The notes under the pieces were generated by a model. The model saw only the letters and a program-made list of their open reading frames with translations, was not told the DNA's origin and made no database searches. The translations under genes and the position numbers were made by a program. This document shows positions 5,219-16,131 of a DNA stretch of 40,932 nucleotides, piece after piece. Source of the DNA: Candidatus Pacearchaeota archaeon. GTDB taxonomy: Archaea > Nanobdellota > Nanobdellia > Pacearchaeales > GW2011-AR1. Where the stretch lies: assembly GCA_018304055.1 (NCBI GenBank), contig JAGVWY010000036.1, positions 1 to 40,932 of the forward strand, read 5' to 3'. The first letter of the stretch is position 1. Each line of letters begins with the position of its first letter.

Positions 5219-7297
5219 ATGAAAGGAAGAGGTGTTCATTTATTTTTGATTTTATTGTTAGTGATTTTTATAGCTGGCGTGATGTATGCAGGAGTAATCG
5301 CACAGGAAAATGTTTCAACTGGAGAAACCCCTTCTGATGAGGATATTGAATCTTCAGAAACAGGGGGAAGTCAAGAAACCTTAACAAAAGAATTCGAGGG
5401 AACTGAGGAGGTTGATGAAGAACCTCTTGAAGAAGAATTTTCTAATGAAATCGAGGAGATTGAGGAAATTGATGGCGAAGAAAGTGAGGAGGAAGATTTA
5501 GGTGATATTGATACTGGCGAATTAGATGCAGGAATAACTCCTGATAGTTTTTTTTATTTTATAGATGAATTTTTTGATAGATTTGGAAGTTGTGTTGAGA
5601 ATCGGGAAGAAAAGATAGCTGAAATCAAAGCAATGGTTGAGGAAGGTAAGATAGATGATGCTAAAAAAGCTTTAGAACGATACGAACACTGCGCAGAGAA
5701 TGTAGAAAAAGAAGCAAGCCCCGGGGAAAAAGAAAGAATAGAAAAGGGATCTAAGATAATTAAGAAAGCCATAAGAAATATTAAAGATAAAATTCCTGAA
5801 GAGGATAGAAAGGATTTTGAGGATATAATTGATAAAGAAGAGAGGATTGAAAAAGCAGTTAAAATTGCCTCGAAAATTAAAGATTTATGTGAAGAATTAT
5901 CTAAATTAGATCCTTTAGAATATTCTAGAGTATGTAAGATTGATGATAAAGTTCCAGAATGGAGAAAGGTTCATGATAAAAAATTAACTGAAGAACAAAG
6001 AAAAGAAGCAAAAGAGTTTGGCGAAATCATGAGAGAGTGTATGAGAACTTCTGGAAAAGAATGTAGGTGCGAGGAAATTGATTTTGTTCCAATGTCTAAT
6101 ATGTGTAGTACAGCAAAGCCTCTAGCCATTAAATGCGATGATGGAGATGAAACTTCCTGCGAAGAATTGAATAATTTGGAATTTCCAGAAATGCCTGATT
6201 ATTTATTAGAGGTTATGGATAATATTGAAAGAAATGTTAAAGTAGATCAATTTGAAAAACATATGCCTAGAGAGTGCATTGAAGAAGGCGCAGATAACTC
6301 TCAAAAATGCATTGAATTAATGTTTAGAAGAAATGCTCCTGGGCCATGTCTTAATGCATTAGACCGAGGAGAAATTAGTTTTAAAAATGAAAGAGAGGCG
6401 AGAGAAGCATGCGAAAAAATCATGTTTGAAGAAAATGCTCCTGAAGAATGTATCGAAGCTGGATTAAGAGATCCTAAAGAATGTGGGAAATTAATGTTCC
6501 AAAGAAATGCTCCTGAAGAATGTATCGAAGCTGGATTAACAGGAGAGCATAAAGATGATCCTAGGAAGTGCGAGAAATTAATGAGAGAAAAAGGGGATTT
6601 TGGACCTCCTGATCATGCAGTTGCTGCTGGATTTAGATGTAAGAATATTGAAAATTCAGATGAAAGATTAAAATGTTTTGATGAAGCTCTTAAATCAGTT
6701 GAGGGAAGGGGAAAAGAGCATTATGATTATAGTAATGAACAAAGAGGCCCTCCTGGAGGATGGCCTGAGCCTTGTGAAAGAACTGGCGCAAGAACTAGAG
6801 AAAGCTGCGAGAAAATAATGAGAGCAGAAGGAGATAGAAGATTTGAAGAGACAAAAGAAGGAGAAAGAGCATGTGTAGAACAATGCAGCAGTGAAGGAAA
6901 AGCTTGGGATTTCTCTAATGGAGAATGTAAATGTAGAGAAGGAGAAAGAAGAGATTATCAAGAGTTTTATAAACAAGGAGAAGATTTGTTTAAACAAAGA
7001 CAGGATTATGAGAGAAATTTTGCAGAAGAATGTAGTAGCAGAGGAGGACGATGGGATTGCAGTAATGGTCAGTGTAATTGTGTAGTTGAGAATGTAGAAC
7101 AACAACCTTCAACAACTCCTACACCTTCAGAAGAGCCTACAACAACTCAAGAACAGCCTTCTACAACCACTACTCAAGAAAGTGGAACTTCTGGGGAAAG
7201 TGGAGGCAGTTCAGGAAGCAGTGATTCAGGCAGTGAGGGAGGAATTACAGGAGGAGTTATTTTTGATAATGAGTTCTTAGATTATTACTATAGGTAA
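5219..7297 (+). CDS. Secreted/membrane-anchored acidic Cys-rich protein with DUF5667-like helical domain
   Basis: N-terminal hydrophobic signal; AGITPDSFFYF motif; repeated P.ECIEAG..ECGKLMF units; S/T/G-rich tail ending GGITGGVI. Confidence 0.7.
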   Translation: MKGRGVHLFLILLLVIFIAGVMYAGVIAQENVSTGETPSDEDIESSETGGSQETLTKEFEGTEEVDEEPLEEEFSNEIEEIEEIDGEESEEEDLGDIDTGELDAGITPDSFFYFIDEFFDRFGSCVENREEKIAEIKAMVEEGKIDDAKKALERYEHCAENVEKEASPGEKERIEKGSKIIKKAIRNIKDKIPEEDRKDFEDIIDKEERIEKAVKIASKIKDLCEELSKLDPLEYSRVCKIDDKVPEWRKVHDKKLTEEQRKEAKEFGEIMRECMRTSGKECRCEEIDFVPMSNMCSTAKPLAIKCDDGDETSCEELNNLEFPEMPDYLLEVMDNIERNVKVDQFEKHMPRECIEEGADNSQKCIELMFRRNAPGPCLNALDRGEISFKNEREAREACEKIMFEENAPEECIEAGLRDPKECGKLMFQRNAPEECIEAGLTGEHKDDPRKCEKLMREKGDFGPPDHAVAAGFRCKNIENSDERLKCFDEALKSVEGRGKEHYDYSNEQRGPPGGWPEPCERTGARTRESCEKIMRAEGDRRFEETKEGERACVEQCSSEGKAWDFSNGECKCREGERRDYQEFYKQGEDLFKQRQDYERNFAEECSSRGGRWDCSNGQCNCVVENVEQQPSTTPTPSEEPTTTQEQPSTTTTQESGTSGESGGSSGSSDSGSEGGITGGVIFDNEFLDYYYR

Positions 7298-7575: not shown

Positions 7576-8455
7576 AAAAATATTTAAATTTATCTTCTGT
7601 TTGAGCGTGTCTAATAATTAGCACGTCTATGATTATAATTTTATTATTACATCTTATTAATAGCTTAATTTGATAACTAATAATCCTGCTAAGGACTCTT
7701 GCTTGTAAGGATTGTTCATTTCTTGCATGTAACCTGTCTCCAAATTCATTTGTTAGACTTCCAAATACACTTTCACCTCTGCCCCTATGCCTATATCCTC
7801 GTCGATTAACAGGCATTCTATATAACTTTCTTGCTTTTTTTCTCCAGTGACCTTTCCATCTGTTTTTGTTAGGACAAACAATCGGATAGTAACCTTTTTC
7901 AAATAAAACTTTGATTGTTTTATTATCATCATATCCAGCATCAGCATATACTCTTCCATATCCTGAAGGCAATGCTTCGTTTGTAGGATCTCTTATATTC
8001 TTTTTAAGAAAACTTACTCCAATTGGATAAACTGTTTCTTGTGCTATTCTGTTTGCAACATGAATCTGTACTTCTTCAATAGTCCATGTTGTGAACTTTG
8101 TTGCATCAATAAAGCTAAATATTTTCCTTAGATATTTATCTAGAATCCTTCCAGCTCTTGATATTACTATCTGCATACATCTCGTAATTTCTGGTTTATT
8201 TTCCCAATAAGCAATGACTGAATGATCCACTCTCTCACCAACGACAAATTCACTCAATCTCACTTCAGCCTTTCTCAAGCTTAAAGTATCACAAAACTCT
8301 TTAAGAACTATCAATTGTACATATTCAACAGGATTATGTTTTGGTGGTCTTCCTCTTTTTTCCTCCTTTTTTCTTATTAATCTTTGTGTTAAACGCTTAA
8401 TTTCATTAAGCGCAAAATTTAAATCATGTATCTCCGTTATCCATCTAGATAGCAT
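7526..8455 (-). CDS. DDE transposase (IS5/IS4 superfamily)
   Basis: RGRPP, IDATKF, YADAGYD, YRHRGRGESVFGSL motifs; SD AGGAGGTGA before ATG 8455; stop lies outside the element. Confidence 0.85.
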   Translation of the reverse strand: MLSRWITEIHDLNFALNEIKRLTQRLIRKKEEKRGRPPKHNPVEYVQLIVLKEFCDTLSLRKAEVRLSEFVVGERVDHSVIAYWENKPEITRCMQIVISRAGRILDKYLRKIFSFIDATKFTTWTIEEVQIHVANRIAQETVYPIGVSFLKKNIRDPTNEALPSGYGRVYADAGYDDNKTIKVLFEKGYYPIVCPNKNRWKGHWRKKARKLYRMPVNRRGYRHRGRGESVFGSLTNEFGDRLHARNEQSLQARVLSRIISYQIKLLIRCNNKIIIIDVLIIRHAQTEDKFKYFYGYYVNGRNRKITKYR

Positions 8456-15071: not shown

Positions 15072-15761
15072 ATGGAAGATCATTATATAAGATTGATACC
15101 CAAAGAAATTAGAGAATTAGGATTTCCAATAGCTAGATTTCTTTCTGAGGAAGAACAAGCAAAGTATGAAGAATCAATAAAACAATTTTCTGGAAATGCG
15201 TATGATTCTTTAAACATTCTTAGAAAGGGTTCCAATCTTTGGAAAGTCCTTTTTCTTAATCAAATAGGAATTAGAACCCCCACACTTCCAGAGTTAGAAA
15301 TTGCATTAGAAAACGGTATGCCTTTAAGTGAACATTATGTAAATGGAAGAGAAGTTATATTAAGAAGTAGAGGGGATAGTTATCAGCGAAATAATTATCT
15401 TGCTGAAACTTTGGCAGATAAATTAAAATTAAAATCCTTTAAACATCCTTATATTATTAGAGGATTAGGGATAAAACAGAGTGAAACACCAAAAGTAATT
15501 GATTGCGATGGATTAGAGTTTTTAACAGATGATACAGAAGTTAAAGAAGCACCTGATTTTAATCATGAAAATCATGGAAAAAAATTCAGAAGAATTAATG
15601 AGGATTATTCAATTGAATGGGATGAAAAAGGATCAAGGACTTTTTATGCTAGAAAAGATGGTTTGTCTAGGTTGTTCCTGAGCTGGGGCTTGGATCTGGG
15701 CTCGGACAACGAGCGTCTTGCGGGCTCGGGTGGCTATAGTCGGGTGGTTGTGATTAGCTGA
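15072..15761 (+). CDS. Putative DGR target protein (CLec-like fold) with C-terminal variable region
   Basis: RTPTLPE motif; terminal GLSRLFLSWGLDLGSDNERLAGSGGYSRVVV encoded by A-depleted DNA. Confidence 0.7.
   Translation: MEDHYIRLIPKEIRELGFPIARFLSEEEQAKYEESIKQFSGNAYDSLNILRKGSNLWKVLFLNQIGIRTPTLPELEIALENGMPLSEHYVNGREVILRSRGDSYQRNNYLAETLADKLKLKSFKHPYIIRGLGIKQSETPKVIDCDGLEFLTDDTEVKEAPDFNHENHGKKFRRINEDYSIEWDEKGSRTFYARKDGLSRLFLSWGLDLGSDNERLAGSGGYSRVVVIS
15661..15758 (+). other. Putative DGR variable region (VR)
   Basis: Hand count 57/98 GC and 11/98 A; no sense codon ends in A. Confidence 0.7.
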
Positions 15762-15824
15762 AACAATTTGCATTAGATTTTTCTTTTTAATTTTTCTTTT
15801 TAAATTTGCAAATGCAAATTGTTT
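15761..15824. repeat. Palindromic element with 14-bp arms AAACAATTTGCATT/AATGCAAATTGTTT
   Basis: Perfect inverted repeat around a T-rich loop. Confidence 0.8.
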
Positions 15825-16131
15825 GCGAAGCCACGCAAAAAAATTTAGAAGAATACATTTCACAATTAAGAGTAGAAACCGAGAGGCAAAAAGCAGTAAT
15901 TGAGCAAAGATTTGCAGAATCTCTAAAATATCTTCAGACTGGAAAATTATAAAAAGCCCTATTTCTACAGGGTACGCAAACAATTTGGAAATATTATTAA
16001 ACAATTAAATTATATGTTTTTATGAAACTCGGCGTTTTATTTTCAGAAAAATTTTCTTATAAAGAAACTTTTATTAAAGAATTAACTTTTATGATAAAAG
16101 TTAAATCAAAATCCCTTCAAATAAAATTAAA

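Follow-up and report, generated by a model that had tools for sequence, protein, structure and literature searches.

A Candidatus Pacearchaeota gene that is otherwise rich in adenine ends in about thirty codons that nearly avoid it, which raises the questions of how this end was written and whether it is still being rewritten. The gene is an ORF of 229 amino acids (15072..15761, + strand) in the window, which here means the whole stretch of 40,932 nucleotides analysed. An earlier note, made from the letters alone, read the end of the ORF as the variable region (VR) of a diversity-generating retroelement (DGR). It proposed a remote target that is diversified in trans by a reverse transcriptase (RT) and a template repeat (TR) encoded elsewhere. 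We therefore examined the composition of the tail, the protein family to which it belongs, the templates available in the genome and its relatives, and the sequence just downstream of the VR.

The adenine-poor tail and its protein family

The tail comprises the last 33 codons of the ORF (15660-15758). The earlier estimate of about 58% GC and 11% A agrees with the measured values, which are GC 0.586, A 0.111 and G 0.404 in the tail against GC 0.301 and A 0.406 in the gene body (15072-15659), with a GC content of 0.305 in the window as a whole. In a GC profile of the window, the value is 0.56 at 15650-15749. None of the 33 tail codons ends in A, whereas the fraction of codons with A at the third position is 0.459 in the gene body. 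As a control for chance, 304,854 windows of 30 codons from 1091 crudely defined long ORFs of the whole genome were inspected (mean third-position A, 0.402), and the tail alone combined an absence of third-position A with no more than 12 A in 90 nt. The compositional jump is real and far beyond chance. All the codons named beforehand as scaffold (TTG, CTG, TCG, GCG, CGG and GTG) or as products of mutagenised template codons (AGC, GGC, GAT, GAC, AAC, CGT and TAT) occur in the tail. The ORF is cut off three residues past a GRVVV-type motif, which reads SRVVVIS in the window. Housekeeping genes with matches to Pur_DNA_glyco (methylpurine glycosylase) and Diphthami_syn_2 (diphthamide synthase) flank the ORF. 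A scan for sigma-70 promoters and terminators gave results at chance level, the sigma-70 model being ill-suited to archaea.

Searches of the ORF against Pfam, NCBIfam and PDB sequences returned only sub-threshold noise. Homologues were found in 28 of 151 sampled genomes of the family and in 21 of 49 genomes of the genus, with this genome counted in both. In a large protein collection the homologues are annotated as "hypothetical protein", and some are sourced from Candidatus Pacearchaeota, a DPANN group, in accordance with the DPANN setting suggested earlier. An AlphaFold2 model, computed with an alignment of 31 family members as input, had a pLDDT of 91.1 and a pTM of 0.89. We compared this model with known structures using VIA-align, for which Z scores below 8 are middling according to the tool's own note. 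The first-ranked match was the DGR variable protein TaqVP (5vf4; Z = 7.7, 164 residues aligned), the third was AvpA of Nanoarchaeota (5ioo; Z = 6.8, 147 residues aligned), and the DGR variable protein Mtd (1yu0) was matched with Z = 5.3 over 128 residues. The majority of the 50 rows listed were C-type lectin or FGE/EgtB-type folds. Foldseek against the PDB gave nothing at E ≤ 0.001, its weak rows including C-type lectin domains. The fold expected by the earlier note was thus recovered by structure prediction: the ORF is predicted to adopt a C-type lectin fold in which the VR occupies the C-terminal end, matching AvpA, TaqVP and Mtd. Sequence identity to these three proteins is only 8-14%, however, and no PDB chain was matched by sequence.

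To relate the tail to DGRs, every fetched locus was searched for ungapped repeat pairs whose mismatches fall on the A of one copy. Genus orthologues share 52-62% identity with the window ORF, and five of the nine closest orthologue loci (L042, L043, L045, L047 and L048) contain a TR that mismatches the VR at 10-13 A and at no other base over 60 nt, directly adjoined by an RT gene in all five cases. Among family loci from other genera, 6 of 29, representing five distinct places, carry TR/VR pairs with 0-1 non-A mismatches. All the VRs have in common the scaffold G-L-S-R-L...L.L..S....L..S...G-R-V-V, and the variable residues correspond to AAC/AAT codons in the TRs. The family of the window ORF (hereafter family A) is a DGR target family in its relatives. 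The window tail is homologous to the TRs and VRs of these proven pairs and is, as had been claimed, a DGR-type VR.

The DGR of contig C1 and the search for a template

The genome assembly (1.23 Mb in 76 contigs, 92.5% complete) has a sole RVT_1 match, which lies on contig C1; the earlier statement that the window lacks an RT was therefore correct. This match is a 352-aa open frame (C1:2293-3351, - strand; RVT_1 E = 7.7e-25 and 4e-24) with the motifs LGNLTSQ and YVDD. The pattern [LIV]GxxxSQ is a mark of DGR RTs. With an A-only TR/VR pair beside this open frame, the genome encodes an RT of the DGR type. Its best PDB relative is 8ub7, a 328-aa "Reverse transcriptase" (E = 3.3e-42) that is presumably the Bordetella bRT. 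The cis target is a 257-aa open frame on the minus strand, a paralogue of the window ORF with 36-39% identity. The TR (C1:3395-3482, - strand) differs internally from the cis VR (C1:3861-3948) at adenines only: mismatches fall on 9 of 28 A, 0 of 18 C, 0 of 21 G and 1 of 21 T, the T being at the repeat edge, and internal non-A mismatches are 0 of 59. This is a textbook pair, and it serves as a positive control for the mismatch method. No avd-sized ORF was found in the target-TR-RT stretch of C1. A complete DGR outside the window, which the earlier note had supposed, therefore exists in the genome. Directly upstream of the cis target lies a 446-aa ORF (C1:4596-5936, - strand) with a Walker-A-like motif, GDTGTGKS.

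A long simple repeat, either (AG)8-11 or G8-11, often precedes the LGNLTSQ motif by about 60-80 nt in the DGR RT genes of the genus. Thirty RT loci were examined (the RT of this genome is L097), and both motifs could be placed in 28. A frameshift falls exactly at the repeat in 6 of 10 loci with a long repeat (shifted in L116, L118, L121, L123, L124 and L125; in frame in L099, L110, L113 and L120), compared with 1 of the 18 loci lacking one. Splits at residues ~180/~199 occur in many other RT matches in relatives. The pattern resembles ON/OFF switching of the RT by slipped-strand events, assembly error being another possible source of the frameshifts. A literature search, the scope of which did not include Paul et al. 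2017, found no link between DGRs and such repeats in RT genes.

The window VR (15660..15747, + strand; 88 nt) aligns without gaps to the C1 TR, with mismatches at 20 of 28 A, 6 of 18 C, 2 of 21 G and 5 of 21 T of the TR. The mismatches are significantly concentrated on TR adenines (20/28 versus 13/60 at other bases; Fisher p = 1.2e-5). A TR beside an RT gene with A-enriched mismatches to the VR was thus found as predicted, but the mismatches are not confined to A. Those at non-A positions lie mostly at codon position 3 or between synonymous Leu codons, and they resemble ordinary drift between old paralogues. Foreign TRs showed 14, 15, 15 and 19 non-A mismatches to the window VR, against 13 for the genome's own C1 TR. 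Paul et al. 2015 (PMC4372165) used a criterion of at least 10 A mismatches to the TR for a VR and a cut-off of at most two non-A mismatches per 100 bp, and the survey of Wu et al. 2018 (PMC5758913) gives a maximum of 11 non-A mismatches. Because its 13 non-A mismatches exceed both published limits and the C1 TR is no closer to it than foreign TRs are, the present C1 template is not the source of the window VR.

No better template was found. An A-tolerant ungapped scan of both strands of the 76 contigs revealed no TR for the window VR beyond that of C1, the next-best matches being A-rich tracts with at least 43 A mismatches, and blastn with a word size of 7 on the assembly returned paralogous VRs only and no further TR. 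We also used a degenerate pattern with N at the TR-A positions and the VR base or A elsewhere, which any template or variant allele must fit. The pattern gave no match to a template in metagenome_contigs or in genome_contigs, in which records of the organism's own genome may be masked; as a control, the window VR was matched once. Metagenome_contigs includes the organism's own contigs (L094-L096, 99.9-100% identical to C3 and C25), and the pattern scan therefore covered assemblies of its community. The assembly contains no TR that differs from the window VR at adenines only; the best one, on C1, departs from it at 20 A and 13 other positions over 88 nt. With 13 of 60 non-A positions mismatched to the only TR of the assembly and no matching TR found, the proposal of a remote target diversified in trans was not sustained.

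The window tail has no third-position A (0/33) in a genome where this fraction is 0.40, suggesting little neutral decay since the tail was last written. A comparison is provided by a fourth family-A paralogue (C71:6362-6778, + strand; 39% identity), with an AT-rich tail that lacks the VR scaffold (GC 0.38, third-position A 11/33). This paralogue is a fully decayed or never-targeted copy. The closest paralogous VR, on contig C3, shows eight third-position differences from the window VR, none of which involves A. Such a pattern is expected if the divergence arose within templates that avoid A, and it hints that the two VRs were written fairly recently, each by a template of its own. A single hidden template for both was considered and rejected: every one of the 27 positions at which the VRs differ would have to be A in it, giving two AAA codons and A at many third positions. 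The C3 VR additionally differs at scaffold codons.

A-poor and GC-rich tails were also observed in two other families of the same genome, namely family B (C25:6411-7157, - strand; C3:1313-2026, - strand) and family C (C1:179-832, - strand; C47:3311-4063, - strand; C60:5569-6384, + strand). Both families are DGR targets in relatives, where TR/VR pairs with 0-2 non-A mismatches were found at 5 of 20 loci of family B and 4 of 20 loci of family C. An A-tolerant scan of the assembly for family B and C templates found none. Therefore, a matching TR is present for only one of at least eight VR-type tails in the genome.

Sequence data from the environment allowed the allele to be compared between samples. 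Most of the window was present in nine sequencing runs. In each of the four runs compared, which came from three studies, a contig crosses the VR with 0-2 differences along 1.2 kb or more, and no difference fell within 15638-15879 among the matches listed. At the contig level the four runs thus have the same VR allele and, among these matches, show no excision of the insert described below. Since contigs hide rare variants, the identical allele is weak evidence for a frozen VR, and low-level diversification is possible. The family-B VR on C25 is identical in this genome and in two metagenome assemblies (L095 and L096), and is a second orphan VR whose allele is shared between different assemblies.

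The downstream hairpin and its insert

The 3′ end of the window VR (CGGGTGG..., 15741..15752, + strand) is IMH-like according to an alignment with eight TRs and many VRs of relatives. All eight aligned TRs end in a G/CAATGG-type sequence at this position (..GAATGG, ..AAATGG or ..GAATAG), which differs from the window IMH. In continuous homologues, the sequence 18-25 nt past GGGTGG forms a GC-rich hairpin, whose 3-nt loop is usually GAA and is read as G-E-A. A perfect stem of at least 4 bp around a 3-nt loop was found in 12 of 22 motif-bearing homologues (23 references given), with covariation of the stem sequences. Beyond the hairpin, most genus orthologues continue in frame into an amphipathic C-terminal helix.

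Comparison with the continuous homologues revealed an AT-rich insert of 65 nt in the window (15759..15823), with 13-nt inverted-repeat arms at 15761-15773 and 15812-15824. The insert replaces the left arm of the hairpin and supplies both the TGA that terminates the ORF and the ATG (15812) at which the next small ORF starts. With its left arm gone, no complete hairpin follows the window VR; the remnant (15825..15836, + strand), recognised by comparison with the family hairpin, retains the loop and right arm (GCGAAGCCAC, 15825-15834). The small ORF (15812..15952, + strand; 46 aa) corresponds to the detached C-terminal helix. Its translation aligns to residues 219-262 of the continuous 263-aa L011 homologue with 41% identity (E = 1e-9). 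Just past this ORF, at 15975-15987, there is an inverted 13-nt partial third copy of the arm plus GCG, so that the helix ORF is bracketed by the motif.

The same element, 51-52 nt long in these copies, lies at the same junction behind three other VR-like tails of the genome, belonging to two protein families (C3 ~7985-8047, C3 ~1249-1308 and C25 ~6345-6408), at the same position after the VR tails. All four copies are thus located exactly at the VR/hairpin junction in two variable-protein families, and none of the four VRs has a matching template. The element was not seen at the homologous position in relatives' loci among 48 loci examined, a number that counts eight from this genome, nor was it found by exact pattern in species-representative genomes. 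The fold energy of the inverted repeat is ordinary compared with shuffled sequences (DNA -14.1 kcal/mol, z = -1.13; RNA z = -1.34), which gives no support for a function, although the repeat itself is real. A bulge-helix-bulge intron was considered and rejected, since the RNA folds into a single long hairpin that has a 2-nt bulge on one side instead of two 3-nt bulges separated by a 4-bp helix, and since in two of the four copies the ORF stop codon already lies upstream of the element. The element was also compared with a MITE, which would have terminal inverted repeats, a target-site duplication and copies at unrelated sites. It has 13-nt inverted arms and a possible TG/TG duplication, but all four full copies are at one homologous position after VRs and have the same flanks, and spread by recombination is therefore equally possible. 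It is also conceivable, though we think it improbable, that the element recognises the DGR hairpin with its GC stem and GAA loop, inserts into the left arm, and thereby uncouples the VR from retrohoming, freezes the allele, while the C-terminal helix becomes a small protein with a start of its own.

Another observation concerns the paralogue on C3. The 3′ module of the window gene (15641-15955), consisting of the VR, the insert and the small helix ORF, has 70% DNA identity over 356 columns with C3:~7800-8162 (- strand). The N-terminal bodies of the two genes have little in common (31% over 108 aa, E = 0.32), and the body of the C3 paralogue is nearer to the C1 target (41%, E = 5e-27). This suggests exchange of the module by recombination. 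The C3 copy is frameshifted at an A7 run just before its VR.

Origin of the variable region and relation to known systems

We consider that the window VR is probably (at roughly 60%) a stranded orphan that has become fixed after the template which last wrote it was lost or left behind. The last ~30 codons of the tail would have been written by adenine-specific mutagenic retrohoming from a TR of the family type. Copying of the A-avoiding TR scaffold and conversion of former AAC/AAT codons mostly to G would explain the composition of the tail. The template and the RT responsible would then have disappeared from the locus and be absent from the assembly. The DGR of C1 serves a different paralogue, which would leave the window VR orphan and frozen. 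The 65-nt insert has replaced the left arm of the homing hairpin, ended the ORF and detached the C-terminal helix. Homing appears to have stopped, and the insert may have contributed to this. With respect to the earlier reading as a whole, the DGR-type VR, the lectin fold and an RT and TR elsewhere in the genome are retained, while diversification in trans is not.

Several features hint against a stranded VR, namely the undecayed third positions, the A-free differences to the C3 VR, the intact IMH-like end, and an incomplete genome in 76 contigs. The window ORF might instead be an active remote target of a second DGR with its own TR and RT, encoded by the organism or by its virus or mobile element and missing from the 92%-complete assembly. 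A tail with no third-position A, synonymous differences from the C3 paralogue that are all free of A, and the intact IMH-like end would all be consistent with recent writing by such a system. In addition, the assembly lacks a TR for at least seven VR-like tails of three families, which may indicate that sequence is missing, and many relatives have multiple RT genes per genome. Repeats often remain unassembled or unbinned. It is accepted that DGRs can act on remote targets (Wu et al., PMC5758913), and Roux et al. state that such targets are missed by their own method. However, the genome has a single RVT_1 match, and no TR emerged from the A-tolerant, blastn and pattern scans, including the scan of the collection that holds contigs of the same organism. 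The hairpin past the VR is disrupted by the insert, and the same allele was found in four runs. A second DGR is the main alternative, one that we take seriously but judge unlikely.

Diversification in trans by the C1 DGR, with low-fidelity copying that also altered non-A positions, would account for the 88-nt gapless alignment and its A-biased mismatches, and Wu et al. (PMC5758913) report that DGRs of CPR and DPANN often have several non-A-to-N substitutions. The same TR, however, has no internal non-A mismatch (0/59) to its cis VR, against 13/60 to the window VR. The latter number exceeds both the maximum of Wu et al. and the cut-off of Paul et al. 2015, foreign TRs are equally near, and the third-position bias of the non-A mismatches is what ordinary drift of paralogues gives. 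These results make the C1 DGR a very improbable writer of the window VR. The tail might also have an origin unrelated to DGRs: a structured RNA gene could overlap it, the patch could be GC-rich DNA of foreign origin, or its composition could simply follow from the amino acids encoded. In AT-rich genomes, genes for structured RNAs stand out as islands of high GC, and Gly, Ser, Leu and Arg are abundant in the tail. Nevertheless, tRNA and Rfam scans of the window gave no match, the choice of codons itself shuns third-position A, and the stretch shares homology with the TRs and VRs of proven pairs, so that an origin of this kind is scarcely credible.

The window VR has its closest parallel in the DUSEL4 fragments of Nanoarchaeota, for which Paul et al. 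2015 (PMC4372165) described VRs without an RT but with a history of A-mutagenesis, interpreted as fossils or remote targets. In both cases there is a target gene with an A-mutagenised VR and no RT beside it. Likewise, the window IMH has GGG where the TR has GAA, comparable to the TGGGGT/TGGAAT pair of Nanoarchaeota, and the GRA-triloop hairpin inside the target gene reported there is matched by the hairpin of the window family. Unlike the DUSEL4 fragments, the window comes from a different DPANN lineage, with homologues in Candidatus Pacearchaeota, and from a different protein family. A DGR with a paralogous target in the same genome also allowed use in trans to be tested here, and this failed. 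Moreover, the window hairpin is interrupted by an inverted-repeat insert, and this hairpin-site insert is the one feature for which we found no precedent, in literature searches that were not aimed at it specifically.

Scattered paralogous targets with a single RT also recall the Treponema denticola DGR and the remote targets of Wu et al. 2018 (PMC5758913). Those targets were assigned on the basis of A-to-N-only differences, and the window VR, having 13 non-A mismatches, would not be assigned in that way. The BPP-1 DGR (mtd-avd-TR-brt; PMC8632793) provides a parallel for A-specific transfer from TR to VR, for IMH/IMH*, and for a stem-loop downstream of the VR. It differs from the system described here in that the present host is archaeal, the loop has three nucleotides, and no avd-sized ORF lies among the C1 target, TR and RT. 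According to the same review, DGRs are the main RT type in DPANN archaea. They are reported to be prevalent in Pacearchaeota, and their presumed role is to diversify the surface proteins with which these cells attach to their hosts (PMC6349945).

As Paul et al. 2015 already described this class, the window VR is an orphan of a known type, and the general knowledge of DGRs is unchanged by it. The side observations, namely the hairpin-site insert and the simple-repeat frameshifts in RT genes, could outweigh the main finding. The window ORF adds an unannotated target family with a predicted lectin fold, without a Pfam or NCBIfam match, to those of DGRs. It also indicates that a live remote target can be distinguished from a stranded one by comparing its non-A mismatches to its own TR with those to foreign TRs.
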